A stretch of DNA of 64,000 nucleotides from Takakia lepidozioides. Lineage: Eukaryota > Plantae > Bryophyta. Positions within the stretch are counted from its first letter, which is position 1. Each line of letters begins with the position of its first letter. Below the pieces are notes generated by a model. That model was not told where the DNA came from. It saw only the letters and a list, made by a program, of their open reading frames with translations, and did no database searches. The stretch is from NCBI GenBank assembly GCA_030704615.1, contig CM060734.1, positions 42,284,001 to 42,348,000 of the forward strand. Direction: 5' to 3'. Positions 1,151-64,000 of this stretch are shown piece by piece. The translations under genes were made by a program, and so were the position numbers.

Positions 1151-1264
1151 ACAGTACTCCAACAAAGTTAGGCATAAAAAGTTGGAGTTATGCAGAATTA
1201 ATCATGCAAAATAATTCCGACTTGAGTGGCTCTCTTGCTGAACTTGTTTGCAGTTTGTGACATT

Positions 1265-6090: not shown

Positions 6091-6094
6091 GTGT

Positions 6095-6646: not shown

Positions 6647-6814
6647 CGATAGCTATGGCGATGTCCCTACTGCATTTTCCAAGCAACTGGGGAAGGTCTA
6701 TGGGGTGTAGGCTTTAACACGTGACAAAACAATATTGGTACCAGCACTCATGTGCACAGACGACCTCTCTCTCTCTCTCTCTCGCACCCAGGGGCCTACC
6801 TACCCTCAGCACTA

Positions 6815-7508: not shown

Positions 7509-7949
7509 CTAGATGCGCGTATACCCGGCGGGTATACCTGTGTATATGATATACCCACCCAACATTGGACGCAACTTATTGTGTGGAAGGTATGCCCCTT
7601 TTACCGGCCGTACTCAAAGCACTGTAATTGTTGCACCATCCCCCCCAAAAACTCCAAAGTTTTATAAACATGTGGTTGTAAACAAATTTAGGATTTTCAC
7701 ATGCAAAATATTTTATTGCTGAAGAGGATCCCTCATATGGTTATTGTGGGTTAGGGCACAACACAAGCTTGTCAGGGTCTAAAACACTTTTTTATGCTCA
7801 CCAAATTTTGTTCGCATATTTACTAATGAGCTAGTATATAATTGTTTAAAATAAATAAAACTAGAGTAGCCTGTGTCATCTAAGCCCAAGTGCAATCTCC
7901 TATGTATAATCTTTTAGGTATGTGGAGGCCCAAATGCGACCTCTAGGGT

Positions 7950-14300: not shown

Positions 14301-15761
14301 AAAACCCAGTTTCATAATAAGGCTGCATAATACTGCGGAGTTGGTACAAGGGGTGTGTCACATGCTGCAGTGAAGTGTCAGCAATCGACTTTTCAAGTCA
14401 GAGAGAAATTTGGTGCAGAAGGGAATCTGGCAAGGCTTAGATATTCCTTGCAGGGAACTTAGGGTATGATTAGGCTTACCTTAGCAGCAGTCTGCAACCA
14501 GAGTGGCGGCACCTCGGAATATCGAAGTTGTGAAAAGTGGTCTGATAACACATGTGTCGGTTAACGTAATCCCTCAGCCTGCTGTGTGGGTGCTGGCCAT
14601 TATATATTAACATATTAGGTCAGGAAGAGTTTTGTTGATAATGGAAAATCCATGTTGAGTGAAAGGTGACAGTGGCAGGCCTGCCTACGTTACTACTGCA
14701 CTGCAGGTGCAACACTGGCGCGCTAATTTTGGACTATATCCCCTACAGTCTGATACTTTAAAAATTACAGCTTATGTGCTATGTTGAGTGAGAGCTCTAG
14801 GAGAAAGGGAAGAGAGAACCACCCACAGCTTGTTGAAAGAGATTGCAATTCAATTTGGCTACAGCACCCAGAAAAGAGGTTAGAGTTAGAGTAGCTTTGC
14901 AGTAGAGTGGAAATGCAGTAAAGGTGATCTGACTCAGAGAGAAAGCGAAAGAAGAGAGTGAGATTTATTTCGCTAAGCAAGCATTGCAGTGGACCCAGCG
15001 GAAGAGCGAAGCTCTAGACGAGGGACAGAGTCTGGACAAGAGTTGTTCTCACATTGAACTAGAAGGCATATAGTCCTCGTACCTCAGTATCAGGACACAA
15101 GACTGTACATGGAAAACTAGAACGATAAGGGTACATTTACAGCTAGCAGTTAGCGAGGGATAGGGAGAGAGAAGAGGTTGAATATCAACGTTTGGACGCG
15201 CACGATTGGCATCCACTGAGATAGCGAAGGTCCAAAGCTCGGAGAGTGAAAGCTTTTGGCACCCAGCCCCATACGCCCTCCCTCTCCGGAAGGAAACATT
15301 GCAGTAGTTGGTAGGTCGGAAGAGAAAAAAGGGATCCAACTCTTGTTTGTACTTGCGTATTATCACTCCCTGGTGGGTCCGCTCGGATTAGTTGGAGAAG
15401 GGGTGCCGCGTGCTATCTTTACTGGTCCCGCCATGGTCATAGTCTACTAGCTTGCTCCCTCATCGCAACCACTTTAGTCCTTAGTGAACACCCTGGGTTA
15501 TAAGCTGCTCCTGCAGGTAAGGAGGTGAGGTGGTGTCTCTCTCATTGAGATGTAACAGGGACTCGAAAATAAGAGGGAAGAGTGGACCAAGGTAGAGAGG
15601 GGGAGAGACGCGGAAATGAGCTGGATGAATGGGAAGTAGATTCCAACGATCACGAGAGAAGGAGATTGGGGAGGCAGGGACGGTCTGAAGATAGCACAGT
15701 CCCACTGACTTAAAATCTGTTTGTGTATATGTGCGCGCGTGTGTGCGTCAAGAGGAGAGAG

Positions 15762-35685: not shown

Positions 35686-38154
<2,469 letters not shown>

Positions 38155-38817
38155 GATTCTTTAACTATCTCGTCTGGCAAAGATCACGACCAGTTAACCG
38201 AGTCCACAACCTTCCAGTATCCAGCCCAAGACAGCACCTTTCGCGACGGCTCCACCCCCAGAAGAACACAAGCTTAGAGAACACAAGACACAAGAGACAG
38301 ATCAAGGCAGCGATGGAATGCTTGCACGGATGCGGCAGAGAAACGTTATATAGAAAGCTTGCGAGCGCAGCAGCAGGAGAGAAAATAATGGTGGATAAAG
38401 CGGATGAGCCTACCTCCACACAAACGCCTTTATCTCTCCTCTCCCTCTCCTCTCCACTCGCTGGGACCCAAGCAGCAAGCTTGCGATCCAAGCTTCGTGC
38501 TCTCATCGCGACCGTGCCTTTTTTTTCAGGGCGGCCCGACAGCTGACCGCGAAACCCTTTTCCTTTTCCAGCGTCTGACCCCGAAACCTTTTTTCCTTTT
38601 CCAGCGTCTGCGCTCATCTACCCAAATATACTTCATCCGACGGAGGTAGGTAAAGATCCTGCAGGCATCTCGGGGAATATGACATCCAGACTCCAGGTAT
38701 TTATACGATCATCCGCATCCTAATACGAATACGTATCATAGTTGCCGACGGAGGTACCTGGAACCGTAGCACGGTCCCGACAGGACATGTGATGCATGGC
38801 GCGACTCCCGGTTCGCA

Positions 38818-44659: not shown

Positions 44660-47636
44660 CTCCCACTGATACACCTAAGCTTCATGCATGAGCCTTAGGG
44701 TACCGGCACTATGCCTGCCATGCTCTTAAATCTGATAAATTTATCAGCTGGTAGAGCCTTAGTAAACATGTCTGCAATGATCCTCCGTAGGAACGTAAGC
44801 TACGTCTACCTCCCCCTGTGTGTCTCGCACATAGTGATACTGGATATCTATGTGCTTTGTACGCTTGTGAAATTCAGGATTTCTCACCAAACGAATAGCA
44901 CTCTGATTATCTGACAATAAATCAGTTGCTCCCTCATGCTCATACCCTATGTCCTTCAACAACCGTCGAACCCAGACAGCCTCTTTCGTTGCTGTACATG
45001 CAGCCACGTATTCAGACTCTGTTGTAGAGGATGATGTGCATTTCTGGAGTTGGCTGCTCCATGCGAGTGGTCCTTCATTCATCATGAAAATGAATCCTGT
45101 CATGGACCCGAGCTCTTCCTGGACAGTGCGAATATTTTGCTGCACAACTGACAGCATAGGCAATGTCAGGTCGTGTGCCCAACATCGCAAACATAAGTGA
45201 GCCAACCGCTTCCCTGTAGGGTAGGTACTCACTATTCTCTCCTTCGTTATCTTTGTATTTTTCAGCTACATGCAAGCTGCTTAACCTTGCATTAGGGTCA
45301 GCTGGAACAATCACAGGACTTGTGTCATCAAATCCAAAACGTTTGATGATGTGAGCAATATACCTATTCTGATCATTCTTTTGTCCCTATCTCTGGTTAT
45401 TCGCAATCCCACGTAACAGTCGACTTCTCCTGCTTTCACGTCAAAATGCAGATTCAAGTATGCGATGATCTCATCCATTGATTTATCACGGCTGCAAAAC
45501 AATTCCATCATCTACAAAGATTGATGTAATCGTCTCTGATGCACCATCACTGTAATACACACAACAGTCAGCCTGGCTTGGCTTTAGGTCATACTTCACA
45601 AGAAAATGATTGAACTTCTCGTTCCATGCCCGGGATGTTTGTTTAAGCCCATATAAACTCTTTTTCAGAACACAGACTTCGTCTTCATGTCCTCTTTCCA
45701 CGTAACCTTCTGGCTGCACATATACAGCTCTTCATCCAAATCTCCATTCAGGAAAGCTGTCTTCACGTCAAACTGGACTATGTTCATGTCTTTGACTACA
45801 GCTATGCTCAAGATCGTCCTGATCGAATCAAACTTGGCAATTGGGGCGAAAGTCTCATCATAGTTTATGCCCTGTTATTGTGAATATCCTTTAGCAACTA
45901 CTCTTGCCTTGAACCTCTCAATTGTGCCATCCGATTTTTGTTTGACCTTAAACACCCATTTGCACTTTATGGCTGTTCTCCCTGGGGGCAATTTGCCTAG
46001 AACCCATATTTTGTTCTGCAGCAATGATTGATACTCTTTAGACATGGCTTCTTTCCAGCTTTCCGAATGCCCAGACTTAATGGCTTCCTGATAGGTTTTA
46101 GGCTCATCAGGTAAATACTCGGCTTCCGCTAAACATGCATAAGATGATTTTTGCTTCCTTCCTTCATTTGACACGTTTAATACATATTCACTCAGTCTAC
46201 TCGGTGGTCTCCTTTCCCTGTGTGGATTAACTCTTAGTGGTTGGACTGCTTGGTCTCTCCCACTGGTCAATGCTTCTCCCACTCTCGTAGTTAGATCAGC
46301 ACCGGTCAACAAATGCACTGCAGAAATACCACTCTCTATTGACTCATTCAATTGACAGGGTCTTGTATTTTCCTGACCTGTGATTATGTCACCAACAGGT
46401 GTGGCTACCTAGTTGTGACCATTCTGAACTACAGGAGGAACTACTGATGGTAAAGCTTTCTGTCCCTTCTTCCTTCCATCACAGTATTTCCTACTGCATC
46501 AGTCAATTTGCAAATATTCTTGCTATAAGTAGTTGTAAGATTCTTGTCAGCAGCTTGGCCTATGGAAAAGAGATTTTTCCTTAACTCTGGGACATACAGA
46601 ACATTCTTGATCGTCCCACGCTTCCATCCATTGTTAACATGACAACGAATCTCAATATCACCAACACCTGCCACCCATAGTTGTTGATTGTCAACCACGT
46701 ACACTTGCCAACGCCCTCTGGGTATTTTTCTCATGGTCTTGAACCATTTTTGTTTATCAGTTATATGTTTAGTTGCGCCTCCATCAGCGAACCAAAACTC
46801 CTAGTTGAATCAATTGCAGCAAACGCTACACTCTCACATTTGTCAAGAGTTACATTGGCATGACTTCTTGATCCAGATGTGATCCCCGCAGCTTCATCAC
46901 GTATGCGCTTTCGACATTCTTTTATCCGATGTCCTGACATACCACAGTAGTTACATCTGCTGTTCTTCTTTTTCTCAGCCATGATGTCAGTAGATGATCG
47001 GTGGTTGTAACCATGAGGATCCCTTGAACTTGATCGCATCGGCCTCTTTAGTGTTGCATTCTTACTGTTATTCTTGATTTGTTTTCCATCCTTCATAAAG
47101 AATGCGTGACCTCCAACCTGATCTCCTTCTTGCTCTACATCATACATCTTTGCTCTTGCTTCCTCCTTTAACAGCCGCACTGTTAGATTATCGATTGTCT
47201 GACTAGCTTGTGGAACGTTGTCTCACGCTGCCAACACATGTTTGTAGGACTGGGGCAAACTGCAAATGACCTTTGTTATTATTGTTGTCTCTGACGTTAC
47301 TTCACCGAGATCGTTCAATTTAGCAGCTAATGACTCGATCTTGCTAATGTGATGAGCTATTTCGTCACCTGCTTTCATTTTGTATTCAAAAAACTCTTGC
47401 TACAGGACGTGTTTATTCTCTGACACATTTTGTTCATGAGTGGCCAATAACCTCTGCCACATCTGATGTGCAGTAACACAATTAATCAGCCTCTGAAGGT
47501 GTCTCTGATCTACAGATGCACACATGTACATCTTCCATACATTATTTCCTTCGTCCCAAACTGTCTGTGCATCAAGTAATTCGTCGGCAGAAGCACCTGG
47601 GTTTGCTACCGCTGTTGGTCTAACTGCAGATCCATC
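44375..47636 (-). mobile_element. Ty1/Copia element A, degenerate: partial gag, protease region, integrase deleted, RT, RNase H, 3' LTR
   Basis: Gag (QMWQRL..EQ; CNYCGMSGHRIKEC), RT (KCKWVFKVK, FKARVVAKGY, QFDVKTAFL, LKKSLYGLKQ, IFVDD), RNase H (STTESEY, DNQSAI, HKRTKHIDI). The 5' part is cut at 47636 by element X1. Confidence 0.92.
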
Positions 47637-48058
47637 TGTCAAGTTAAATAAACACAGTGTGAAACTAACTAGAATAAATCTAGTTATTTGTATTTAACAC
47701 TTGGATTTAGTTCAAGTGTTAAGTCAGGTGTCAAGTTTAGCTTGACACCTGAACCGTCTTATCTTCACGAGAGCGTTAGTCGTGCGGCTCATCTCTCTCG
47801 AGTTGAGCCTGCACGACCGAGCTCCTTCGCTGCTTAGAATCTGAGTGTGCTTATGAAGGGAGCATAGGATGTTGTGGGGTGGAGTCCCCATAGCTTGGGG
47901 TGCCCCTGGCTCGACTCTTAGTTTAACGAATGATGGTGTTGTATTTCATGTCCTTGTGTCAACAGCGTGATTTTAGTTTTTTATCACTCGAGAGAGATGA
48001 CCTGTCTAGTTTTTGTAGTGCTCAGCTAGATAGAGTTCTTTTATGTTAGCACTATGTC

Positions 48059-48146
48059 GATGGTCGAGGTGAAGAGAGCGGCATGCTTGATGACGACGTA
48101 GTTCTCCAACTCGTCATAAACCACACCAATCTCATCCAAGAAGCGT
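48059..48146 (-). pseudogene. THI1: Captured fragment of thiamine thiazole synthase
   Basis: [29 protein letters not shown] matches the conserved THI1/THI4 segment [28 protein letters not shown]. Confidence 0.88.
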
Positions 48147-48529
48147 TTCCCGTTTTGTTGTTGTTGCACATGAGCGATGTATTTTGGAGGAAGTTGATTC
48201 GGGGGGCAGCAGAAGAAAGTGTTCACCATAACCTATGGCTGTAAGGGGAAGACGGGATTCCACGCTTGCAAGCTACCTGCGGAAGCAAGCTGCAATCTAG
48301 TGCGAGTGCGAGGTTCTGAGGACAGACCTCGATCGCAATGATCTTGTCGAAAGGCTGTGCAGGGTAAATGATCCATAGCTACTTGAACAAAGGTCCTGAA
48401 ACCATTGTCGTATAGCAGCTGTATAGCAGCTGGTAGGGTTTCTCTCGTTGCCAGTTGTAGGAGGGTGGTAAGCGCTGGATCCAGAAATAGCTCCCCGCCT
48501 GAGCCGGAATTCCACCAGAAGAAAACGGG

Positions 48530-48725
48530 TTGAGCTGCATGTCATCCGTGCAGCGGGGGAATACGGTGGCAGACACCTTGGCTTGGTGGGCAGATCACAA
48601 TCGTATGTTCGAAGCGCAAACAGGCAGTAGCGTTGAAGGCCAAGCTTCCGTTGACAGTGTCCGTCATGGCCACAGGAAAAACATCCGGAAAGCTCCTACA
48701 CAGGGTTCTAAGAAGGGTTGTATGA
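48530..48725 (+). pseudogene. DREB2: Captured N-terminal fragment of a DREB2-type AP2/ERF transcription factor (AP2 domain absent)
   Basis: GNTVADTLAWWADHN and RKAPTQGSKKGCM correspond to the DREB2 motifs GxTVAxxLxxWxxxN and RKxPAKGSKKGCM. Confidence 0.8.
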
Positions 48726-48729
48726 GCAA

Positions 48730-49090
48730 TTGATACAGAAAGGGGTGACTCCAGACAGGGTGACATTCACTTGCGTCCTGAACGCATGTGCCAGCCTAGG
48801 AGCTGTTGAAAAAGGGCAAGGAGGTCCATGCTGAGATCATCAAAGTTGGAGTTGGGCCAAATATCCCTCTTGAGACTGTCCTTGCCAACATGTATTCCAA
48901 ATGCGGAAGCATGGAGGACGCATGGTGTTTGACAACATGGCTCGACAAGATGTGGTCTCATGGAGCTAAATCATTGCAGGATATGCTCAGCATGGTTGTG
49001 GTAGGGAGGCTTTTGTATGTACAAATGCAACAGGGAGGGGTGCAGCCCGACAACATAACATTCATTTGCTTCTAGTGCATGTCCCACTCT
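48730..49090 (+). pseudogene. Captured PLS-class pentatricopeptide repeat fragment
   Basis: GVTPDRVTFTCVLNACASLGAVEKGKEVHAEIIK..NMYSKCGSMEDA..DVVSW..IAGYAQHG..MQQGGVQPDNITF, with frameshifts. Confidence 0.9.
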
Positions 49091-49148
49091 CACTTGTACT
49101 CATTCAGATCGATTGCTCCACTCACCGATTGCTCCATCTACACATCTC

Positions 49149-49348
49149 TCATTCCATTTCTTCAACAACATCAACTTCACTGTTGTCGCCGCCCACACGA
49201 TTATGTTTCTTAGCATATCGTTGATTCCTCAAGAACTTAGGGTCCATCCCTTTCTGGAGGTGTACTTCTGCTACTTAGGCTTCTTGATCCCGTTCCTGTG
49301 CATCTTGTACGACTGGTTGTGCGCTGTGTGATTCTTTGACTTCGCCAT
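49149..49348 (-). pseudogene. RPL29: Complete intronless copy of 60S ribosomal protein L29 (eL29), disrupted
   Basis: [53 protein letters not shown], with one internal stop and a 1-nt loss at KG-MD. Confidence 0.93.
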
Positions 49349-49359
49349 CACAACAAGAT

Positions 49360-49545
49360 TAACCCAAACGGTTCAGAGCATGAATCTGACCTTCGTGTTG
49401 GAGACCTCGCAGCAAGCCGCTGGAGAGTGAAAGAGCAGCCCTGACGCCAGAGGCATGGCAGACCCGGGGTGCAGGACGTGCAGCAGTTGTCAAGCGTGTG
49501 CCTGCGAAGGAGGATCCCAGCACAGCAACCTGGGCACTGTTGGTA
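49360..49545 (-). pseudogene. Captured plastid transit-peptide-like fragment, parent unknown
   Basis: AVLGSSFAGTRLTTAARPAPRV..SGVRAA has a typical transit-peptide composition and a VRA cleavage motif. Confidence 0.5.
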
Positions 49546-49926
49546 GAATTTAATTCCACCATTTCGGGCACTCGCAGGGCACTATATTTTGAACTTGATG
49601 GGAACTTGTAGTGAATCGCAAAAAACGTGGGAACAGTTTTTAATGGTGAGAACGTTTAGGTGTTAAAAAAAAAACCCTTTTGATCTAATTTAAATGATTT
49701 AGAGCCTAATTGGTCATATCTTTGTCAAATGGACTTTGTTTGACTCAGTTTTTGGGGGGGTAGCTGCAGAAAGGGGAAATCTACCTATCTTGGTTTTAGT
49801 TTTTTGGACTCCGCTAAAAATCTATGGAATTTTTTGAGTGTGAGTGTGCTATGAAAGATCCACAATTCTGTTTCTAGAACCTGTTGTGGTCTACATGAGA
49901 GACAAATCTGTGGATGCCTTCCTTGC

Positions 49927-50661
49927 ATGGCTGGGGGAAATGAGGACGTAATTGAAGGGCAGGTCTCTTTTCTTAGCATGTGCACACAAGGGGACAAGAT
50001 TTATGTTTCTCAAGGAACTCAGACTGATTTGAGTTGGGAACAGTTGGACGAGTTGATTGCATACTGGGAGTCAAGCATTAGCAATAGACAACAAACTGCT
50101 GTAGTTGGCGTTGAGAGCCTCAATATTGTTTTGGACAGTCAGAACTTTGTTGGAGCAAGCAGTTCTGCAGCTGTAGGTGAAATACCAAAGTGGGTGGAAG
50201 CTAGGCTTGGAACACAGCCAAAGACAGCCCCGGGGACCAAGGTGCTCACCCACAAGGCCGTGGTGTACTGGAGCAGAGGAGCAGGAGCTACACAAGTTTT
50301 TGCAATCAGACATGGTTGCAGCCGGACACGCTCTGCACAAGGCAACCACGAGCGGGGGTTCATTAGCAATGACAAGTTTGTTCTGCTTGAAGGAGATGCA
50401 GTCATTCGCAACGAGGACATCCGCAACCGTCTCAAAGCTTTCGAGTTGAGAGACTGTCAGACCCTACCTTTATTTTCTTTAGTGTTCAGTGAGCGGGAGA
50501 TATGGGAGTATTGTTTTGTCTCTACCTGGCAGAGAGAGGAGGAGGGTTGGTTAGAGCGAGCTACTATAGCTTGGGATAAGGTTAGTAACAGGTTTCTGGA
50601 CATAGATATATCTCCTACACCTTACCATCATGCAGAGCGAGGCACTTTGAGAGAAGTCTAG
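49927..50661 (+). CDS. Orphan 244-aa ORF in the X1 leader (possible accessory ORF)
   Basis: Uninterrupted ATG-initiated ORF on the same strand as gag. No motif recognised. Confidence 0.4.
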   Translation: MAGGNEDVIEGQVSFLSMCTQGDKIYVSQGTQTDLSWEQLDELIAYWESSISNRQQTAVVGVESLNIVLDSQNFVGASSSAAVGEIPKWVEARLGTQPKTAPGTKVLTHKAVVYWSRGAGATQVFAIRHGCSRTRSAQGNHERGFISNDKFVLLEGDAVIRNEDIRNRLKAFELRDCQTLPLFSLVFSEREIWEYCFVSTWQREEEGWLERATIAWDKVSNRFLDIDISPTPYHHAERGTLREV

Positions 50662-51197
50662 CAGTTGATAGCATAGATCAGGATTAGATCTTGCTTGGTC
50701 GGGCCTCTATTCTTCCCCTCCCTCTCTTTACTATTTTCATTACTTTGTACTTGTAGTTGCCAAAGCCTCTCTTGATGGAGGCCAGTCAGTCCGGGGTTTT
50801 TGGGCTGGGATATTCTGCAGGATCAGCACTGCAGATGGATTTTGGTGTGGGGGTGTTGATGTTTTGATTTCTTGTGTTTGGATCCCCCCCAACACCTGCA
50901 TGCTTGACTGTGCGCCATGTTGGTTTTGTGTGGGCGCTTGCTTTCATAGGGATTAGGCCGGATTTGATCACCCGTCCATCCTAGAGTATGTTGTCGGTGG
51001 TGAGGCTAGAGTGATGACCAGCAAGACCACCAATGTTTCTTCTATGGTGAGACTGTGTTGATGACCAGCCAACCATATGAGTTCTGACGGTGGATACAGG
51101 TGCAGGTGCCCTAAGCCACTGGGATATGATCCTTAAATTGCAACAGGTGCCCACCCGTGTCACTATTAGAATTAGTACTAGAGCCTTATAATGTCAC

Positions 51198-54100
51198 GTG
51201 GGGGAGGTACGGGTTGTCAGTGTCATCACGGAGATACCCAAGGGTTCTGAGGGGAGTACGGCTACAAGTAGTAACAGTGAGAGTGGGTTCACAAGGCGAG
51301 GTATTCGGTTCAGACCACCTTCACCTCCACCCTCAACTAGTGCAGAGTCAAACACAGACTCGGAGGCTTCATCAACAGGTGTGCATCATTCGTCATTGTT
51401 GTGGGACGACTTGGAGGAGATGTATGGAGCTACCAAGGGGCCTCGTAGGTACTCTGGAGCTATGGGCACAATCGAGCTGAATGACTTTATCCAGGAGTTC
51501 AACAGCTGGTGTGATTTGCAGCAGATGCGCAATCCACAGCTGTTCACCCCATTCATGGCGTGGAAGGGACTGTTCCAGCATTTGGAAGGCCCGCCTATGG
51601 ACGATTACCACGAGTTCAGGCGAGGACATGAAGCAGAGATTAAGGAGTGGAGGATGTATTGGTCACCTGACTACGTCTCCATTACTCGAGGCACGACGCG
51701 ACCAGTAGCTGCATCAGCACCAATATCTCCCACTGCCAGCACTAGTAGTGGAACAAGTAGTGTCGGTACTTCTGCAGGTGGTACCAGTTCAAAAGGTGCT
51801 ACTACTCCTCCTGCCAGGACTACAACACATGTGCCTAGATTCAACCCGGTGGTGGAGTTCTTCCAAGAGTTGCGGACGAGCTACCAAGGCGTACGGACAG
51901 AGAAGCTGCGAAGTTTGCCAGACTTCCAGTGCAAATCCAGTGAGAGCTTGCGAGAGGCCTACACTCGTATGAGGCGCTTGATAAGTGTGACCCAAGGGGT
52001 TACTGAAGCTCAGGCAGTCCAGTTCTGGTATGGAATTTTGGACAAGGAGCTCAGGAGAAGGGTGCGGGATGCAACCCTGTTACAAGCGGCCCAACCCACA
52101 TTAGCAGATGTGTTTCTGCTGGCTGAGCGGATTGAGCTCAACATGGTGGAGGAGCGAGTTGTTACCATTGGATTTGGCAAAGACATGTCTGCACGGGGCG
52201 CAGCTGCCAGCCCACAGGCACAAGGGACTGCCCAACAGCGTGGTCAGGGGGGCAAGGTTCCCCAACCCAAATTCCATGGAGCTTACAGAGGACCTCAGGT
52301 GCAGAGGCCAATGGCATCTTTTGCAAGCCAACAACAACCAGGGGTGATATGTTGGACATGTGGAGGACCCCATATCAAGAAAGATTGCCCAGAGAGTGGC
52401 AAAAGGCCGGCACAAGCACAGCCTGCACAGTTGCACTATGGGCATTGTGGCAAGTATGGGCATGGAGAAGCCCAGTGTTATGACTTGCACCCTGAGTTGC
52501 GGCAAGGCCAGTTCCAAGGGAACAATGGTGGCCGAGGGCAAGCTGGAGCACCTCAGAGAGGACAAGGTGATCAGGCACGAGGTGCAGGATAAGGGCAAGC
52601 ACAGTATGGCCAAGGACGTGGAGGTCAGGGCGTTGACCAAGGCATGGCCAACCGGCTTCAGCAGCTAGAGCAACGGCTTGCTGCCATGGCCACAACTCAG
52701 GTGGTACCAGCTCCAAGACTTGAGGGTCCACCTCCTGTTCCTCCTCAACAGCGTCATCCTGACGGAGGAGATATGGGAGGCATGGGATTTATGTGCGGGG
52801 CGGCACTTGAATTGCCACTTATACAGGTGGATTCTGCTGCAGCCGTCACACGAGGAGCAGCACGAGTTCCTGAGCCACGAGGTGCAGAGGTGGAGTTGGA
52901 TCCACAGCGTGGGGAGGCAAGCCGTCAGGCTAGGTTGCCTCAATCATTCATCTTGGCGGAGACAGTGTCGACGCCATCCATGGCACCTAGTTTTCGTCCG
53001 ATGGATACCGAGGCGGATGTTATTGTGTCATTGGGGAGAGCTACACGTGCAGCACTGACACCTGCTGCCAAGGCTAGTGCAGCCAGTGTGTTGTTGGGGG
53101 CGGCCACCTCTGTGTGTCAGGCCCCACTGTTCTCGGCAACCATGATTGCAACACCGGGGGTAAGACCAGCTGCAATGTTCAGACTAGCAGCAACACTCTA
53201 CGAGAGTGGGGAGATCACTTCATCTTCTGTGGAATTACTAGAAGGTGTAGTGGCAGAGGGATCCTCGGATTTGAGGGTCAAGACTGCCACGGCTGCGCCA
53301 TGGCAAGCTGCAGCTGCCAGGTTGACGGAGCTGCCAGCTAGGCCAGCCTTTGAGCACGCCATGGTGACACCTGGAGTTGTCTTGTTAGACAACCAGGATG
53401 GCATTTTCTCTTTGAGTGGACCGGCAGGCAAGAGGTACCGGCCACTGCGGGTCTTGTTGGACTCGGGAGCTCAGCCACTGATGTTGGGCAGAGCTGCTAT
53501 TTCAGGTTTGGGCCTCATGGAGGCGGATATGGAGCCTTGTCTTTTCCAGATACAAACATCTCTGGGAGGATCAGAGCAGGCTCGGGGCATGACACGGCGT
53601 GAGTTGGCCATTAGACTACAGCCGGATCATCTTATAGATGGCTCAGTGATGCGTGTCAAGCCCATTGTGACAGACGCGGTCTCTTACGATGTCCTCGTTG
53701 GTGGGGCAGTGTTGTATCCCATGGGCTTCACCCTGGATTTTTGGGAGGAGTGAGCATCCTACAGGCCTAGATGGCAGTCAGGGGATGGTCGTCATGTACA
53801 GTTCCCTGTGACGTTCATTGGGGGTGTTGCTGCTGCCCAACGGGGCAAGATGCCAACACTAGCAGCCTTCACAACTGCAGTTAGTTGGCCTGGAGGGTTG
53901 CTGGAGGGCAATGCCCATGCAGAGGATGTGCCACCTCCAGCAGAGCATGATGACAAGCATGGTACGGCGGAGTTGCCTGCCATGGTTGCTCACACTCCAT
54001 TGTGGGGTACGAGCAAGGATTTGCAGCAGGCTGCTGATAGACGGGTGCAACAAGCCTGGGTAGAGGCCTTCGTACCGTTAGGAGAGGAGGAGAATGCGGT

Positions 54101-55066
54101 GATTGCACCAGGACCACCTCAGTTGTCGCCATTGGACACCACACCTCTTGTGTGGCAGTGCCCACATGAAGGCATATGTCTTCTGGACTTGTTCGGCGGG
54201 ATCAGCACTGGATTGGCTGCAGTGCTGCAGGCAGGTGTACGAGTTCAACGTTACTTGTATGTGGAGAGGGATGAGATTGCACGACGTGTCTCACTGCGCC
54301 ATGTTGCTCAGTTGGTACAACACTACCCTGATTTGTTGCCAATGTCTGCAGTTCATGGATACCAACAAGCATTGCTAGCAGACATCTCTTTGCTGGGGGC
54401 GCATGATTTGGAGCGGGTTGACCCTATTCACTTGGTAGTGGCAGGTTGGCCCTGCCAAGGGCATGGCAATGGGTTACAAGACTCAAGGTCACGCCTGTTT
54501 TGGGAGATGTTGAGGGTCCTACGCTATTTACAGCTTCAGCAGACAGACTCTCCGGCATATATCTTGGAGAATGTGCCATTGATGGGTGATTCTCGGGCCA
54601 AGGTATGGCCAGTGTGCATCAAGTGCGGTCTTGGTTTGGATTAGCAGTGTTGTTGGATGCAGCTGCAGTGGGATCACGGGCTCATCGCCCACGACTATGG
54701 TGGACCAACTTGATGTCACCTGCACTGCTCAAGCGTGCATTTGATGGGGTGCAGCGGCCACCACACCTGACGGTGGATAGCATTTTGAAGAAAGGGAGAC
54801 AGTCTCAGCGTGTGAGACACGATGACCGATCACCTTTGGCAGTGGTCAATAAGGTGGATCACCCACGAGCCGCATTACCTGCACTGCTCAGCTTTCCAGG
54901 ATCTCATGCCTTTCGGGATGGTGAACCTGGCCTCTTGTGGGATAGCCAGTTACAGCAATTAGTGGAGCCCAATGCTGACGAGCGCGAGCGGGCGATGGGT
55001 TTTACCATTAGTACCACGGCGGTGCTATCTCTTTCTGAGGCATCACGTCGTCAAGTGTTGGGGCAA
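51198..55066 (+). pseudogene. Gag - aspartic protease - C5 cytosine methyltransferase polyprotein
   Basis: ORFs 51198-52592, 52644-53753 and 53808-54644 share one frame, separated by single stops, with a frameshift near 54600. Gag (QxKSSESLREAY; CWTCGGPHIKKDC knuckle), protease (VLLDSGAQ at ~53460), DNMT motif I LDLFGG, II YVERD, IV GWPCQG, VI ENV, VIII RPRLWWTN, IX ERERAMGF, X RRQVLG. Confidence 0.9.
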
Positions 55067-56154
55067 ACAAAGCATCTGAGGTCCTCTCTGCCCTTCCCTG
55101 AGCTTCACCTGAGCCCCATTGTTGCCTTGAGCACGTTGAGGTAGTGGTTGGCTAGGAGCACCACTACCCCGTGGTGTCTCCTTAGCAAATCCCACCATGA
55201 CCACTCGTTCCTCCACCATGTTGAGTTCTATCTGCTCTGCCAGCAAAAACACATTGGCTAAGGTGGGTTGGGCCGCTTGTAGGAGATTTGCATCCCGCAC
55301 CCTTCTCCTCAGCTCCTTGTCCAATATCCCATACCAGAATTGGACTGCCTGAGCTTCCGTAACCCCTTGGGTTACATTTATCAAGCGCCTCATGTGAGTG
55401 AAAGCCTCCTCAAGCTCTCGGTCGGCTTCCGTTGGAACTCTTGCAAGCTCCGCAACTTCTCTGTCCTCACCCCTTGGTAGTTCCCTCTCAACTCTTCGAA
55501 GAACTCCACAACAGGGTTGAAGGCAGGCACGGGTGCTAGTGCTGGTGCGGTAGTGGCTTGGGTGGACGTCGTAGCTACTGTACCACCAGTCCCACTAGTC
55601 CCACTGCTACTTGTTGAAGCTGCCGGTGCAGCGGCAGGTGTAGCCACTGCCCTCGTGGCTCTAGTGCCCCTAGTGATGGAGACATAGTCGGGTGACCAGT
55701 ACATCCTCCACTCCTCGATCTCAACCTCATGCCCCCGCCTGAACTCATGGTAATCATCCATAGGCGGCCCCTCAAGGTGCTGAAACAGCCCTTTCCATGC
55801 CATGAACGGCGTAAATAGTTGTGGATTGCGCATTTGCTGCAAATCACACCAACTATCAAACTCTTGGATAAAATCATCCAACTCGATGGTGGCCACCGCC
55901 CCAGAGTACCTTCGTGGCCCCTTGGTAGCTCCATACATCTCCTCCATTGTGTCCCACAACAATGGCAAAGAAACAACTTGCACCGCCAGTATGAGTCCTC
56001 CTGATTCACAATCCGAATCAGAACCTTCCGTAGAAGACACAGGAGGTGAAGGTGGCCTAAACCGTACGCCTCGTCTCGTGTACCCACTAGTATCGCTAGT
56101 GCTCGAACCGGCACTGTCCCCAGCAACTAGTGGCACCTTCGTGTTGACACTCAA
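55067..56154 (-). pseudogene. X2 gag, frameshifted near 55400 and truncated
   Basis: EEMYGATKGPRRYSG..WCDLQQMRNPQLFTPFMAWKGLFQHLEGPPMDDYHEF..TEAQAVQFWYGILDKELRRRVRDA is nearly identical to the X1 gag. Confidence 0.92.
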
Positions 56155-56379
56155 CCGGTCATGAACATGTCCCTAACCCCCTCTCCACAAGGTAACCGGG
56201 TAGCGAACCTGTTGCGGCTTATGGTTTGGAATACTAAGTTCCTAACATAGCCTACACCTGTACTTGCATGACCATGGGAATATCATGAAGATACTCCTCA
56301 AACCGCCCTCCACGAGCTTCAAAATTCGGCCTTCAAGACCACATGCCAGTCCTTAGGCAGTCCACCAGTGCCTCCACGA

Positions 56380-58680
56380 GTCAGCACAAGCCGTCCACAG
56401 GTCAACACGGGCCACCACAGACCAGCACAGGCCCACACAACTCACTGGTCACAGCCATCACAGTCCCACAGGCCACTGGGCACAGCCTGTCACAGCCCCG
56501 CACAGCCCGTCACAGCTCGCCACAGCCCGTCACATCCCGTCACAGCCCCACAGGCCACTGGGCACAGCCTGTCACAGCCCCGCACAGCCCGTCACAGCCC
56601 CACAGGCCATTGGGCACAGCTTGTCACAGCCCCTCACAGCCCCTCACAGCCCCCAGGCACGGCCTGACATAGCCCCTCACAGCCCGTCACAGCCCCAAAG
56701 GCCTCAGGCACGGTCTGTCACAGCCCCTCACAGCCCGTCACAGCCCCAAAGGCCTCAGGCACGGCCTGTCACAGCCCCTCACAGCCCATCACAGCCCCAA
56801 AGGCCACGGGCACAGCCTGTCATAGCCCCAAAAGGCCACCTGCACAGCCCCTCACAGCCCATCACAGCCCCCAAGGCCACCGGCGCAGCCCGTCATAGGC
56901 CCTCACAGCCCGTCACAACCCCCAAGGCCACCGGCACAGGCCCTCACAGCCCCTCACAGCCCCTTACAGCCCCTCACAGCCCCAAAGGCCTCAGGCACGG
57001 CCTGTCACAGCCCCTCACAGCCCATCACAGCCCTAAAGGCCACCGGCACAGCCTATCACAACCCCAAAAGGCCACCGGCACAGCCCCTCACAACCCATCA
57101 CAGCCCCCAAGGCCACCGGCACAGCCCGTCATAGGCCCTCACAGCCTGTCACAACCCCCAAGGCCACCGGCGCAGGCCCTCACAGGCCCTCACAGCCCGT
57201 CACAGCCCCGAAGGCCACCGGCGCAGCCCGGCATAGCCCCTCACAGCCCCTCACAGCCCCACAGGCCACTGGGCACAGCCTGTCACAGCCCCTCACAGCC
57301 CGTCACAGCTCGCCACAGCCTCTCACAGCCCCCAAGGCCTCAAGCACGGCCCTCACAGCCCCTCATAGCCCCAAAGGCCTCAGGCACGGCCTGTCACAGC
57401 CCCTCACAGCCCATCACAGCCCAAAAGGCCACGGGCACAGCCTGTCACAGCCCCAAAAGGCCACCGGCACATCCCCTCACAGCCCATCACAGCCCCCAAG
57501 GCCACCGGCGCAGCCCGTCACAGGCCCTCACAGCCCGTCACAACCCCGAAGGCCACCAGCACAGGCCCTCACAGGCCCTCACAGCCCGTCACAGCCCCGA
57601 TGGCCACTAGCGCAGCCCGTCACAGCCCGTCACAGCCCCACAAGCCACTGGGCACAGCCTGTCACAGCCCCTCACAGCCCGTCACAGCTCGCCACAGCCC
57701 CTCACATCCCCCAAGGCCTCAGGCACGGCCTGTCACAGCCCCTCACAACCCGTCACAACCCCAAAGGCCTCAGGCACGGCATGTCACAGCCCCTCACAGC
57801 CCATCACAGCCCTAAAGGCCACGGGCACAGCCTGTCACAGCCCCAAAAGGCCACCGGCACATCCCCTCACAGCCCATCACAGCCCCCAAGGCCACCGGCG
57901 CAGCCCGTCACAGGCCCTCACAGCCCGTCACAACCCCGAAGGCCACCAGCACAGGCCCTCACAGGCCCTCACAGCCCGTCACAACCCCGAAGGCCACCAG
58001 CACAGGCCCTCACAGGCCCTCACAGCCCCGATGGCCACCAGCGCAGCCCGGCACAGCCTGTCACAGCCCCACAAGCCACTGGGCACAGCCTGTCACAGCC
58101 CCTCACAGCCCGTCACAGCCCCACAAGCCACTGGGCACAGCCTGTCACAGCCCCTCACAGCCCGTCACAGCTCGCCACAGCCCCTCACATCCCCCAAGGC
58201 CTCAGGCACGGCCTGTCACAGCCCCTCACAACCCGTCACAACCCCAAAGGCCTCAGGCATGGCATGTCACAGCCCCTCACAGCCCATCACAGCCCTAAAG
58301 GCCACGGGCACAGCCTGTCACAGCCCCAAAAGGCCACCGGCACATCCCCTCACAGCCCATCACAGCCCCCAAGGCCACCGGCGCAGCCCGTCACAGGCCC
58401 TCACAGCCCGTCACAACCCCGAAGGCCACCAGCACAGGCCCTCACAGGCCCTCACAGCCCCGATGGCCACCAGCGCAGCCCGGCACAGCCCCTCACAGCC
58501 CCTCACATCCCCCAAGGCCTCAGGCACGGCCTGTCACAGCCCCTCACAACCCATCACAACCCCAAAGGCCTCAGGCACGGCCTGTCACAGCCCCTCACAG
58601 CCCATCACAGCCCTAAAGGCCACGGGCACAGCCTGTCACAGCCCCAAAAGGCCACCGGCACAGCCCGTCACAGCCCCATC
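56380..58680. repeat. Complex tandem array built on a 10-bp unit CACAGCCC(C/G)T with spacer modules and higher-order repeats
   Basis: Many copies of cacagcccct/cacagcccgt/cacagcctgt interspersed with aaggccaccgg and aaggcctcaggcacgg. Long blocks recur (e.g. starting ~57375, ~57765, ~58245). Confidence 0.97.
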
Positions 58681-58899
58681 CATGGCCGCTCTGGCAGTTT
58701 AGCCATTTCTCCAAGGGGTTTAGCCACGCCAAGCTAGGGTTTGTGTCTCTTGGACTCTAGGCTTCTTTCCACTGAGCTATGGCGGCTGTGAGGAAATCAG
58801 CAAGGTATTCTTGCTCTTTCGGCTCCCACACACCACCATAGTAGCCCTAAGCCATGAGGTGGTTGCCACAAACCAAGCCTTCTTTCTCACTTAGCCTCC

Positions 58900-59560
58900 C
58901 CAAACACGCCACTAAACTCAATGGCAAACAACCAAGCCCTGCTGGTTCCCAGCCCTTGTGAGCACTCATTCAAGCACTCTCATTGGCCATAGCATCTGTC
59001 TTAGAGCCTAATCCAGCCCCCTACATCTGCTGCTTCAAGAGTTGCGCTCCTTTCAAGCTTGAAGTTGAAACCCCAACTCACATACGCCATACAAGTGTTT
59101 TTCTTTCGCTCCAAGTGGAAACCAGCCCTAGACCTTCCGTTCTAGCTCTCTAAAGCTTGAAAACAAGAGCCTCAATGGCTCCACACATGCCCCACTCTCA
59201 CCATAAGAGAATCAGCTCCTTTGCTTCATTTCTTGCACCCACAAACCTGAAAATACAAGCTTCAGCAGGCTGAAAGCATGCTCCACATGCCCTACAGGGA
59301 AACCAGCCCCTTCCTTCCTTTCTTGCACTCCCACACCTAAAAGTGCAAGCCTTCACCAGGCTGATAGCATGCTCCACACATGCATTGCCCTCACATAAGG
59401 GAAGTCAGCCCTTCCCTCTTCCTTGCTTGCCCTCCAAGCTTGAAGATGGAAGCTTCAATGAGCTGAATACATGCTCCACACATGCAACCTCTTCACACAA
59501 GAGATATCAGCCCCCTATCTTGGCTCCTTGGCTCCTTGATGCTCTCTAAGACAAGACTAA
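58900..59560. repeat. Degenerate ~90-100-bp tandem repeat in the X2 leader
   Basis: gctccaca(ca)tgc recurs at ~59178, 59280, 59371 and 59473, each with a preceding aagc(c)ttca-like motif and a following cagccc-like motif. Confidence 0.65.
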
Positions 59561-60515
59561 GCACTCCACAGCCTTTGCCAAGCTCCTGAAACCCTAAGGC
59601 TTACATTTCCAGCCACAAGACACTTCGTTTGTGGTGCAAGAGCTCTTCTTCCAAGCTCTGAAACCCTAGGTGTACATTCCATGGCCTTGCCGCACCTCTT
59701 AGCTCCTGTTCCAGCCCTCTCTTGCCATGACAAGAGCCCTCTCAATGCTGAAGCTCGAGATTGAAACCCAATCTCACCATACTCCACAAAGTGCACTGAT
59801 TTGCCCCAAGCCAAATCAGCCCTTTCGCTTGGTCTTGCAATCCTTCACACAATGAAAGCTCGCATTCCCAAGTCCAGTTCTCAGCTTTGCCACCAAAGCC
59901 ACTATAACCTGCTCTTGACTGGTCATCTTCCCAATCGTGCTTGCTCATGCATGTACACAATCTGAAACCATCAAGGTGCTCTGGAATTACCTGCAGCATG
60001 GTGCTTTCATCTCTGAAGCTGAAGATCGAATGCCAAGGTCTACCACCTCGTAACCCACATCGCCTCCGCTTCTAACAACCAAGAGCTCCACGGTGCTCCT
60101 TGCATAACAACTTGGTTCTCTCATTCTCAAGCAAAAACCACAAGTGCTACAACTAACTCGTATCTGGCACTCACAGATACGAGCTCATCTTTCTCGAGTG
60201 ATAAAGAAGAAGAATACAAGCACGAGCTCACAAATCTGAAGCATAAACTCATGCATATATAACCTCATCACTCAAATACAAGTCAAGCCAAGTGCACCCC
60301 ATGCCATGGGGAATCCACACTACGGCGCCATAGCTAGGCGCGGTGAGGCTCAACTCGAGAAAGATGAGCCTCCCGCGCTTGCCGTGAAGATAACCACTAC
60401 AGGGCCTAAATCTGCCTTGACCTCTGGATTGACACTTGGGCCAATCCCAAATGTCAATATGTAAAAGCTAGCTATTTCCTAGCTAGTTTCACACTAGTGG
60501 TAAGATAACTTGACA

Positions 60516-63500
60516 AAGTGAAGCCCTACATAGACTTCATGATCATTCTTGGTGATAGTGAAAGCTTCACCCATGTAATCAAGAACATTTGTCACCTTCT
60601 GTGTTTTGACACTGCAGGCAAGACCATCATCGACAAAGATAGTGAGGATCAAATGTGTGCCTTTGCTGCTAAAATAAACACAAGGATCAGCGTCACTTGC
60701 TGTGAGATCGTATTTAGTCAAGAAAGAGTCGAATTTCTTGTTCCACGCTCGAGAGGCCTGTCGAAGGACATAGATAGACTTTTTGAGTCGACACACTTGC
60801 TTAGGGGCTGTCGGATCTGTGAAGCCTAAAGGCTGATCCATGAAGATTTCCTCTGCTAAATCTCCATGGAGAAAAGCAGTTTTAACATCAAATTGGGTGA
60901 TGTCCATGTCTTGTACGGCTGCAATTGACAAAACAGTCTGTATGGAATCATATCTCACTACAGGTGAGAAAGTCTCTGAGAAGTCAATACCAGCCCTCTG
61001 CGTAAATCCTTTAGCAACAAGTCTTGCTTTGTATCGTGAGATGGATCCATCAGCGGTTAATTTTAGCTTGAAAACCCATTTGCACTTTATTGTGTTCCGA
61101 TCTGCAGAAAGATCACAAAGCTGCCACGTCTGATTTTGGATTAGAGAATGAAATTCTTCCTCCATAGCTTTGATCCATTCAGCATGATGAGGGGAATTGA
61201 TGGCTGTCCAGTAATCAGCAGACTCTGGTGGTAATGGGAGTGCAAGCATAACTACTCCGATTAGTTGGATATATCCAGTCGCCCAATCTGGTGGGAGGCA
61301 CTCTGGAACGAGGAGGAATCGCCGTTGGTACTGATGTTGTGTGATCAAATGTGTCAGCATCATCAGATGTCACAATTGGTGTTGCAGGAACTTGCAATAT
61401 ATGGGCAGGACTTGCTGGAGGAGTATGTACCATCACTTGGACGGACTCTGGAATCTGTAATATATGGGCAGGAGCAGTATGCGTAGGACTTGCAGGAGGA
61501 GTATGTACTCTCACTTGGACCAATTTTTGTTGTACATGGGTACTAGGAGGAAAATCCTGAAACAAACGAGAATATGTAACCTCGTCATGATATGCTTCCT
61601 CAGAGTCATCGTAAGTATGTTCGTCAAATAGAACGTCACGGCTCTCTATGACTTTCTTGTCTGTTATATCCCAAAGACGGTAGGCTTTGCAGTGATCACT
61701 ATATCCAACCAACAAACACTTCTTGCTCTCAGCATCCAACTTGTGTCTTCGTTCTTCAGGGATATGTGCAAATGCTATACAGCCAAACACTCGAATATGA
61801 GCAACTGATGCTTTGATGCCAAACCGAGCCTGATAAGGCGTTTTTCCTGGGAGTGTTCTAGTACCTGTTCTGTTGAGTACATGCACTGCACAAGCGATTG
61901 CTTCGGCCCAGAAATGAATTGGAAGTGAGGTTGAGTGAAGCATGCTCCGAGCAGCTTCAACAATTGTGCGATTATCCCTTTCAGAGACAGCATTTTGCTC
62001 TGGGCTGTACGCTGTAGTGTTTTCGTGGATGATGCCTTCTTGTTCACAAAAGCGCGCAAAATCATGAATCATATATTCACCTCCTTGGTCAGTCCGTATG
62101 GTAAGGACTTTGTTTCCTGTATCTCTGAAGGTGTGGCGTACTACTCTCTTAAAACAAGAAAGAACCTCTGATTTGTGTTGAGCAAAGAAGATCAAGCGGT
62201 AACTGGAATGATCATCCTTGAAAAGGATATAATATTGAGATTTGCCAAGAGAAGGAACGGGCATCGGTCCACAAATGTCACTATGAAAAAGCATGCCAGG
62301 CTTGGCTACTTTAGTACGAGAATTATGAAAGGAAACGACGTCCTATGCTGTTTGCCGTAGACACAACCATGACAAACCTCTATGATGGAACTTGGATCTG
62401 TAATCTTAATCCCTTCTACTAAGTGCTCATTGACCATTTGTTTTATCATGCCATGACTAAGATGTCCTAGGCAATGATGCCAAAGCTTTAGACTCTGTAC
62501 AGTGGCAGAATTGGGAATGACTCCTACTTTTGTAACAAGATGGCTCATCGTTGCAATAATGGTAACAAAGTTGAGTGTCCATAGACCTCCATGCAAATAA
62601 CCACTAAGAACGATCTGACTGTGCTGATGAAAATAGACATATGTGCTTGTATAGGTAACTGAAATACCTGGTTTAGAGACAGCTCGGAGTATAGAGAAGA
62701 GATTTCTCTTGAGTCCCGGACAATAAAGAACATCCACTAAGACAGCTCGTTCTTTTGTGCCATTGTTGTTGACTATGATATCAATATCACCGCGTCCTGT
62801 GACATAGCCATCTGCAAAAGCAGCCTCAACGGGCCATTGTCCTTCGGCTATAGGAGTAAACTTGGTAAACCACTCTCTACGGCAGGTCATGAAATGAGTT
62901 GCACCGCTGTCTGTAAACCAGTCAGTGAGATGACTCTCACCAGAACAAGTTATGGTCCATGCTCTGGGATTGGTAGTACTCTGTGAAGACTGACCAATGT
63001 TCTGAAATTGTTTGGGCGGGTTAGGGCATTCTCTGGCCCAGTGACCTTCCTTACCACAATTGTTCCAAAAGGTAATCTTCTTGCGCTCTGCAATCATAAT
63101 AGATCTTTCTTGACGTTGCTCGTAGGTGAGCGGTGGCCGCCAAGCAGTATGGGTTGGAGGTGGCCCTCTCCATGCAACGTTCGGTTGTCAATTACTCCCA
63201 CTGTTTGAAACAGTTGCAGATTTCCACTGATTTGAATAAGATCCAGATGGTTGTCGTTGCCATTGAATAGAAAAACTCCCACTGCTTCCAACTGGTTGCT
63301 GATGCGATTGCTGCTGCGTTTGTGACTTGACAGTTGTGGTCACAGTTGGCTTGGTATAGAATGCTTGGGTGTCTGTAGAAGTTTGTTGCTCCCTTCGTCT
63401 CTTTAACTTGGTTTCTTCTTTTAGCAACCTCAAAGTAAGATTATCAAGATTGCGTTGCTCCCCCGTAACGTTATCCCAAGCTGTGAGGAGATTGTCATAT

Positions 63501-64000
63501 TCTGGTGGTAGATTGCAGATAAGTTTAGTCATGGCTGCGCTGTCATCAAAAGCAGTATCTAGATCTTTAAGTTGACAAACTATGGTGTCTACTTCACCAA
63601 GGAAAGAAGCCATATCTTGTCCTGGAGACATCTTGCATTCATAAAATTGTTGTTGTAAATGATAAATGTCCTCAGTGGACTTTTGCTCATGGATAAGAAT
63701 CAAGCGTGACCAAATCTGAGCTGAGGTTATGCAATTCAATAATTGGACGAGAAGCTTATCATCAATTGTCTGCATCAAAACACTTCTAGCCTGCATATCT
63801 TTGCGGTGCCAAGCAATTGCGTCAGCTGCTTCTGCTAACCGTTCAAGGCCTGTGACAATATCCATGAAGTCTCGACCTGGAGAGGACTGATTCCATTTGA
63901 TACTTCCATATCTGAAAGTTGTGGCCATTACTTTTTAACGTTACAAAAATCTTTGCTATCCATGTCTGGTACTGCAAAACAAAAACAAAGAAAAACATAC
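60516..64000 (-). mobile_element. Ty1/Copia element B: gag, protease, integrase, partial RT (interrupted by X2)
   Basis: Gag (QIWSRL..EQ; LPPEY), knuckle CGKEGHWAREC, WFTDSGATH, LWHHCLGH..CHGC, integrase (HSDICGP, RTDQGGEY, PEQNAVSER), RT (KCKWVFKLK, YKARLVAKGF, QFDVKTAFLHG, IFVDD). Several frameshifts. Confidence 0.95.

Follow-up and report, generated by a model that had tools for sequence, protein, structure and literature searches.

A stretch of the Takakia lepidozioides genome holds what is almost certainly a dead copy of a Gypsy-DNMT3 retrotransposon, with a cytosine DNA methyltransferase (DNMT) in the same polyprotein as Gag and protease. We analyzed 64,000 nucleotides of contig CM060734.1 (assembly GCA_030704615.1, positions 42,284,001 to 42,348,000, forward strand; hereafter the window, whose coordinates are used throughout), and the coding remnant, which we call element 1, lies at 51198–55066. 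We consider it probable that element 1 is what remains, as a dead 5′ half, of a Ty3/Gypsy element whose intact relatives package the enzyme at capsid levels, methylate complementary DNA (cDNA), and integrate by way of a circle. The window copy itself is a relic; its interest lies in the lineage, the presence of that lineage in Marchantia, and the replication route that its ends imply.

Gag, Protease, and Methyltransferase in One Reading Frame

The coding remnant comprises the following features, all on the forward strand:

51198..52600, +: Gag, identified through relatives; conserved capsid-like part at 51411-52160; stop at 52590
52350-52388, +: Gag CCHC zinc knuckle; degenerate second knuckle at 52437-52478
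53367..53834, +: aspartic protease; DSG at 53460-53468; stop at 53751
54168..55066, +: DNMT3-like C5 cytosine methyltransferase; motifs ordered I to X, cut inside X

A single frame (51192-54605) runs from Gag through a pair of zinc-knuckle-like motifs and LDSG to DNMT motifs I–VI, and is interrupted by exactly two in-frame stops—TAA at 52590 and TGA at 53751. The second half of the DNMT (DAA..AHRPRLWWTN, ERERAMGF) sits in the neighboring frame after a one-base shift near 54605. An earlier sequence-only reading of this DNA had described just this arrangement of Gag, protease, and C5 methyltransferase, with two stops and one late frameshift, and had looked to Pfam for the methyltransferase assignment: PF00145 matches 53754-54641 above its cut-off (E 3.2e-5; 24 bits against 22), and scores 20.7 bits, below cut-off, in the longer X-read protein. 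Its statement that introns are absent also holds, as the Marchantia protein P0004 aligns with the whole stretch (52% identity over 1103 columns, 68% over the last 160) without any intron-sized gap.

Gag and protease of the window copy have no Pfam match and were identified via relatives: Retrotrans_gag matches relative P0013 below cut-off, and Asp_protease_2 was found in relatives, above cut-off in P0270. Reverse transcriptase (RT), RNase H, and integrase of the DNMT element family were not found within the window. Besides the stops and the frameshift, five residues of the catalytic loop are gone directly after PCQGH, and motif X is truncated after QVLGQ, at about 55068; with these lesions the window copy is dead and cannot work.

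Relatives Keep the DNMT in Two Domain Orders

Related elements are spread across green plants. A first search returned 40 proteins, 25 of them with an organism name: 18 from Marchantia, 4 from Calypogeia, and 1 each from Sphagnum, Haematococcus, and Scenedesmus. A DNMT-domain profile search gave 140 matches, adding Closterium among the 120 listed, and the same profile found 500 representatives at E<1e-30 in a 50%-clustered library. The relatives in Marchantia, Calypogeia, and Sphagnum agree with the earlier proposal of a land-plant retrotransposon lineage. No vascular plant was named among the matches listed, which is weak evidence since element proteins are often masked in annotation; three pattern matches were obtained in viral contigs, none of them confirmed.

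We kept 80 of 129 confirmed metagenome loci. These were chosen by their DNMT and thus show linkage, not the frequency of DNMT loss. Protease precedes DNMT in 61 of the 62 loci with room upstream, RT follows it in 44 of the 52 with room downstream, and all seven domains (Gag-protease-DNMT-RT-RNase H-integrase-PHD) are present in 10 of 80; land-plant relatives have this order. The main, large decayed family is by eye nearly identical to the Sphagnum protein P0011; L002 and L076 represent two further families. L076 has two clean open reading frames (ORFs), one of 1369 codons encoding protease and DNMT and one of 1047 codons encoding RT, RNase H, an integrase with rve and H2C2 domains, and a PHD finger. 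As Ty3/Gypsy membership implies, the relatives show the order Gag-protease-RT-RNase H-integrase, a DDE integrase, TG...CA ends, a purine tract, and a 4-bp duplication; of that order the window copy retains Gag and protease only.

Among 304 proteins, the DNMT adjoins the protease or precedes RT in 70 and lies between RNase H and integrase in 145, with 89 left unassigned. The second architecture, RT-RNase H-DNMT-integrase-PHD (P0039, P0180-P0258, and others), carries Haematococcus as its only organism name, and no description of it was found in the literature examined.

Trees of the DNMT and RT were built from element domains, with host DNMT3s and a named Klebsormidium sequence outside the set; the matches listed included no host DNMT3. 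In the DNMT tree (66 rows: 34 of the first kind, with DNMT by protease or before RT, and 32 of the second, 28 of these drawn at random), a branch with support 99 splits the two architectures, and the window DNMT falls in a group of 10, with support 100, that includes Marchantia, Calypogeia, L001, L002, and L014. DNMT and RT identities are correlated (Spearman 0.81 across 12 elements of the first architecture and 0.52 across 41 elements; 0 of 999 permutations), which supports co-inheritance of the two domains as judged from sequence. The root of the RT tree is weak because both RTs taken as DNMT-less outgroups were placed inside the land-plant clade, one of them (L059) with a DNMT remnant. A second decayed DNMT-bearing family, whose DNMT is 37% identical, was seen in the same host as L059 (L059:2210-4438, minus strand).

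The earlier reading had allowed that the domain might be a one-off acquisition; other copies keep it next to protease and RT, and by these comparisons it is not confined to the window copy. The wide spread and the two domain orders point to an old green-plant lineage.

A DNMT3-Like Domain Under Constraint

Profile and fold both place the enzyme with DNMT3. Against PDB, the domain profile scored 6e-22 for DNMT3A and 1e-19 for DNMT3B, compared with 6e-10 for DRM and about 1e-8 for DNMT2 and M.HhaI. We modeled the intact DNMT domain of relative L002 from a 70-row alignment at a predicted local distance difference test score (pLDDT) of 97 (a single-sequence fold reached pLDDT 32). Solely DNMT3 structures appear among the 30 Foldseek matches listed for this model, and a wide structure search put DNMT3B first (Z 29.5, root-mean-square deviation 2.6, 273 aligned), followed by DNMT3A (Z 28.1), M.MpeI (25.7), M.HhaI (23.2), and DNMT1 (19.6). 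These comparisons support a domain that is DNMT3-like and not DRM, so that, of the twofold DNMT3/DRM likeness proposed earlier, only the DNMT3 half stands. C5-methyltransferase motifs I, IV, VI, VIII, IX, and X are present in order; the unpermuted series reported earlier is borne out in its order and falls short in its completeness, motif X being cut in the window copy and whole in relatives. DRM enzymes are circularly permuted, and the earlier judgment that this is not a simple DRM capture accords with the motif order.

Catalytic residues are retained almost without exception. A pattern count over 234 full-length domains found the catalytic Cys in 228 and EN in 227, and the only invariant columns of the 70-row alignment are the catalytic Cys and the motif VI Glu. 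Motif IV reads GWPC or GWEC, unlike the animal GSPC. Proportions of nonsynonymous (pN) and synonymous (pS) differences between the window copy and L002, L007, and L014 are 0.18–0.23 and 0.68–0.79, the latter near saturation, and between families the DNMT is 64–69% identical, whereas the adjacent preceding linker is 36–42% identical. By these measures the DNMT is under purifying selection between families, one of the two outcomes of the substitution-rate comparison that the sequence-only reading had called for; the other, a within-family pair without constraint, is taken up below.

A Conserved Stop Between DNMT and RT

In land-plant relatives DNMT and RT share a frame, with a stop about 75–110 codons past the DNMT. 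We compared the site in 51 loci of one family, aligned across it with an L014 probe: the codon is TAG in 29, TAA in 21, and GAG in 1, and 48 of the 51 continue with CAACCC. The other two families read TAG-CAACCA (L002) and TAG-CAGTTA (L076). CARYYA is a known read-through signal, and we take both of these contexts to match it. Because three families that differ around the site keep a stop followed by CAR, the stop looks like a programmed signal, and it is likely, from this conservation, that some ribosomes read through it. The placement assigns the DNMT to the Gag-side product in land-plant relatives and suggests an enzyme needed in bulk.

Split Terminal Repeats and Predicted Self-Priming

The sequence-only reading expected the domains between direct long terminal repeats (LTRs) with a target-site duplication. 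The domain order holds, with a PHD finger added, and so does a 4-bp duplication; two full direct LTRs were not encountered, and in their place we find a split layout, A...B-A-B or A...B. The full form, A (340 nt)-coding-B (115 nt)-A-B, is present in L025, L059, L063, and L066 and in part in L014 and L022. Left ends start with TGTCA and right ends finish with CA, mostly GACA. Upstream of B copies (n=22) lies a purine tract in 13 and the end of A in 5. Target duplications are an exact 4 bp in 5 of 6 independent two-ended insertions and agree at 3 of 4 bases in the sixth; L063 duplicates the L025 insertion, L015 has an internal rearrangement, and damaged ends kept L059 and L072 out of the count.

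In the large family, a segment about 30 nt past the TATA box in A complements the bases directly after A, at no fewer than 9 of 11 positions in 18 of 25 left ends; L076 has a 16-nt primer/site complement of different sequence. The A and B repeats of the large family have no BLAST match in the window, where left ends were found instead by a self-priming scan and a self-match of the window. This gave one left end for element 1 and one for X2, a second element on the minus strand:

47637..47986, +: likely terminal repeat A at the left end of element 1, running from TGTCA to CA; predicted self-primer at 47789-47803
47987..48000, +: predicted self-priming primer-binding site of element 1; 15-nt perfect complement
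48001..51197, +: long leader of element 1; decayed PPR-gene fragment at about 48700-49060
60182..60515, -: left terminal repeat A of X2 (60515-60199; starts TGTCA) and predicted self-priming site from 60198

The complement is perfect over 15 nt in element 1 and over 17 nt in X2 (0 of 10000 shuffles in each case), and between the two elements one base pair has changed on both sides. Pairing is thus kept in four different sequence pairs—the large family, element 1, X2, and L076. A self-priming layout of this kind is typical of Tf1-type elements, according to the available text of PMC5006619 and PMC6317226, and from the conserved pairing we regard Tf1-type self-priming as very likely here.

Because of its strand and the similar layout of X2, we assign the repeat at 47637 to the element 1 ORF 3.2 kb downstream, so that the element probably begins far upstream of 51198, where the earlier reading had started it. 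The left ends of element 1 and X2 match at 71%, and the last 90 nt of the element 1 leader match the X2 leader at 65%. PPR matches in the leader are below cut-off. The likely leader also contains a 268-codon open frame (49855-50661, +) with no match in Pfam, Atlas, or the relative loci.

Two features of the ends bear on integration. At the A2|B2 joint, the end bordering the priming site is fused to the end bordering the purine tract (5 of 5), and insertion ends derive from the B|A joint, CA-nn-TG, whose 10 bp are palindromic in L014 and L022 and almost so in the distant L076.

Two further observations concern the repeats. At L011:5531-5820 and L015:13174-13463 the right end is rearranged, with a portion of A and its priming site joined directly to B. 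Repeat A also contains TTTAGGGTTAG upstream of the TATA box (L025:5965-5980), a telomere-like sequence that we presume to be a telo-box.

Proposed Replication Route and Its Alternatives

The route that we consider probable for intact relatives would run as follows. Most ribosomes would end after the DNMT and a few would continue into RT and integrase, so that the DNMT would be made in amounts like Gag and RT/integrase at a fraction of that level. The 5′ end of the RNA would pair with the site directly after A and prime reverse transcription without a transfer RNA; self-priming after A, together with plus-strand priming before B, would yield a linear cDNA with B-A at each end. Joining of these ends would give a two-LTR circle, which the DDE integrase would open at the palindromic CA-nn-TG joint of B with A and then insert, producing A-coding-B-A-B. 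Within the particle, protease would free the DNMT, which would methylate the new cDNA, and the new copy would arrive marked like host repeat DNA.

The 4-bp duplication points to a DDE integrase. Retroviral integrases can cut two-LTR-type joints and IS3 elements insert from circles; for LTR elements, circles are usually regarded as dead ends. We give the circular route somewhat better than an even chance. New cDNA is suggested as the substrate by the position of the DNMT in the Gag-side product and by the CG activity of a dinoflagellate DIRS enzyme; by that analogy we lean slightly toward cDNA as the target, and methylation of the element's own cDNA is our inference from these two points.

Several points speak against parts of this account. 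The stop, RT, integrase, and right end are missing from the window copy, and what we say of them comes from sequences of relatives. The 80 loci are mostly one family, some of them the same insertion repeated, and the RT tree does not resolve first-architecture elements as a single clade. Closterium P0211 and several other relatives run into RT without a stop, which is therefore a feature of a subgroup. An A-B-A left end was seen in 0 of 25 cases, although a circle would hold two B|A joints, a bias for which the circle model offers no account, and 7 of 13 right ends have a single B, which may reflect one-LTR circles, B-B recombination, or assembly collapse. For the enzyme, the first half of the DNMT is free of constraint in one pair within the large decayed family (pN 0.070, pS 0.037), as decay after insertion would lead one to expect. 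Observed/expected CpG in the element is 0.47, not lower than the 0.37–0.73 of neighboring genes and other elements, and gives self-methylation no support. The isolated domain of KnitGypsy-Dnmt3 from Klebsormidium, the closest known element, gave no methylation in yeast, a result that its authors call inconclusive in the text available to us (PMC5890265).

The absence of A-B-A left ends is where a linear route has its strength. Extra strand transfers through internal B and A copies could rebuild the start of A and the end of B with no closed circle, leaving integrase to act on ordinary linear ends; only the A...B-A-B and A...B forms would then be expected, and a linear substrate also yields TG...CA ends and 4-bp duplications. 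Yet the A2|B2 joint fuses precisely both ends set by ordinary priming, in all five cases, and true insertion ends do not coincide with either priming boundary, falling instead at an internal palindrome that is conserved between families. We regard the linear route as possible but the less likely of the two.

The CpG content, which is not depleted specifically in the element, and the silence of the Klebsormidium enzyme in yeast would also fit a DNMT with another job: DNA or RNA binding in the particle, methylation of host chromatin or insertion sites in trans, or shielding of one B|A joint from integrase. Motif IV, GWPC/GWEC rather than the animal GSPC, and the CG and CHG sites within the B|A palindrome lean the same way. 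Near-invariant catalytic Cys, Glu, and Arg argue against a binding-only role, while the fusion to Gag puts the enzyme where cDNA is made, and the DIRS-borne DNMT3 methylates CG de novo, as stated in PMC5890265 as far as its text was available. We hold such another job to be doubtful, and less likely than cDNA methylation.

It is very improbable that the window copy alone captured a host DNMT3 or DRM transcript. Mosses do possess host DNMT3 genes (PMC6453930, available text), and host pieces do enter the element, as seen from the PPR fragment in its leader. Elements of liverworts, mosses, and algae, however, carry the DNMT at the same place and with the same sequence, and the DNMT motifs are not permuted as a DRM origin would require. 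Host streptophyte DNMT3s carry a C-terminal DUF3444, according to the same partial source, whereas the intact ORF1 of L076 has no Pfam match to DUF3444; the window copy is also intronless, unlike a host plant DNMT3 gene. A domesticated, working host gene, to which only the long open stretches lend some color, is negligible in view of the two stops, the frameshift, the catalytic-loop deletion, the lost end of motif X, and the nested-repeat setting.

Returning to the circular route, a wider and much more tentative picture can be drawn, which we think rather unlikely in its entirety. An ancient Ty3 lineage, from chlorophytes to mosses and liverworts, would have kept a single DNMT3-like enzyme, placed either ahead of RT or between RNase H and integrase, and would replicate through a self-primed two-LTR circle opened by a DDE integrase at an internal palindrome, a route undescribed for LTR elements. 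In land plants, read-through would load the enzyme at capsid levels, and the enzyme would methylate cDNA and may decide which palindrome is cut.

A Second Element and the Surroundings

X2 meets element 1 tail to tail, and the surroundings are nested repeats:

44762..47636, -: Copia relic, its Gag cut exactly at the element 1 left end
55067..55070, no strand: tail-to-tail joint at which both elements lose their 3′ parts; likely deletion
55069..56172, -: X2 Gag fragment of a sister family, with one frameshift near 55410
56370..58678, -: C-rich tandem array of 2.3 kb in the likely leader of X2
60516..63934, -: second Copia relic, its RT cut at the X2 left end

The sequence-only reading took X2 for a second member of the same family. 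It is a relative, being Gag of a sister family, and consists of Gag only; the joint that truncates element 1 truncates X2 as well, which accounts for its lack of a DNMT. X2 and element 1 are 75% identical in DNA over 918 nt, and the N-terminal part of Gag is 92% identical in protein, with nonsynonymous and synonymous divergences of 0.037 (dN) and 1.79 (dS). Simple inversion of 55069-60515 was rejected as an origin of the arrangement, as it restores neither element nor either Copia.

Both family members inserted in Copia coding sequence, one in Gag and one in RT; n=2 is too few for a preference. The array at 56370-58678 has a 10-nt unit with higher-order periods of 31–73 and 483 nt. Elsewhere in the window, a beta-amylase gene (35689-38160, -) has its best named matches in Physcomitrium (76%), Sphagnum (75%), and Marchantia (72%), with seed plants at 65% or less; in a 24-row one-gene tree it is sister to Sphagnum + Physcomitrium with support 97/97, a placement that, on this one gene, makes an early-branching moss lineage the likely host. 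A leucine-rich repeat receptor-like kinase gene (15714-20709, +) is spread over several short frames, and a decayed LINE-type RT (27130-28690, -) is accompanied by scattered fragments of the same family at 660-7510.

Comparison with Known Systems

The closest known system is KnitGypsy-Dnmt3 of Klebsormidium nitens (de Mendoza et al. 2018, PMC5890265, main-text parts, for this element throughout). Like the elements described here, it has the Ty3/Gypsy domains, DIRS-like A-coding-B-A-B repeats, and, within the polyprotein, a DNMT3-like domain that lacks introns and permutation, is under purifying selection, and retains its key residues. Its authors place DNMT, RT, and RNase H in a single ORF, whereas an in-frame stop separates DNMT from RT in the land-plant relatives, and its host is an alga, whereas ours is a land plant. 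A priming mode, target duplication, PHD finger, and integration route are absent from those main-text parts, which also do not mention Marchantia, liverworts, or Physcomitrella; they treat the DNMT of the Klebsormidium element as acquired within that lineage and leave open what use an element has for a silencing enzyme. No named Klebsormidium sequence is among the matches listed, so the likeness is one of description.

SymbioDIRS-Dnmt3, from the same paper and the same parts of it, has a DNMT3 in the Pol region, split repeats, and two domain orders, and methylates CG de novo in yeast. It uses a tyrosine recombinase, whereas the elements here have a DDE integrase with a PHD finger and 4-bp duplications; neither of the two ORFs of L076 matches a tyrosine recombinase.

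EpiLTRs (Fernandez-Moreno et al. 2026, bioRxiv 10.64898/2026.05.21.726589) likewise combine an LTR element with a C5 DNMT and a chromatin-reader domain. In the preprint text available, their DNMTs are sister to DNMT4 and accompany DAM and a chromodomain; the authors separate them from streptophyte Gypsy-DNMT3, and Marchantia, mosses, bryophytes, and land plants are not mentioned. L076 has no match to DAM or chromodomain and the element DNMT is DNMT3-like, which places these elements outside the EpiLTR definition.

Tf1/Sushi elements and the moss Tcn1 chromoviruses share predicted self-priming and presence in mosses (Neumann et al. 2019, PMC6317226, available text). They have a chromodomain where the elements here have PHD, and that text mentions no methyltransferase, PHD, or Marchantia. 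Chlamydomonas Gypsy-7a_cRei has a PHD finger in a Gypsy polyprotein, with no methyltransferase among the domains listed for it in the accessible part of PMC9940879.

A 2025 paper and the 2026 EpiLTR preprint (10.64898/2026.05.21.726589), in their available text, still cite streptophytes and dinoflagellates for such elements, referring to PMC5890265. In the literature searched (few subscription papers, no Repbase reports) we found no account of DNMT-bearing elements from land plants, and none describing the conserved stop, the self-priming, or integration from circles.

These elements have practical consequences. A tool that looks for a pair of full LTRs would likely miss them, and a census of host methyltransferase genes can come out too high if it takes in their DNMT domains. 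What the enzyme does can be put to the test in a land plant, since 18 of the 40 first matches come from Marchantia polymorpha, a genetic model for which methylation mutants exist. Relative to the systems above, the streptophyte Gypsy-DNMT3 kind is known; new here are its land-plant occurrence, the conserved stop between DNMT and RT, the predicted self-priming, and the circle-like ends, whose structure suggests integration from circles.

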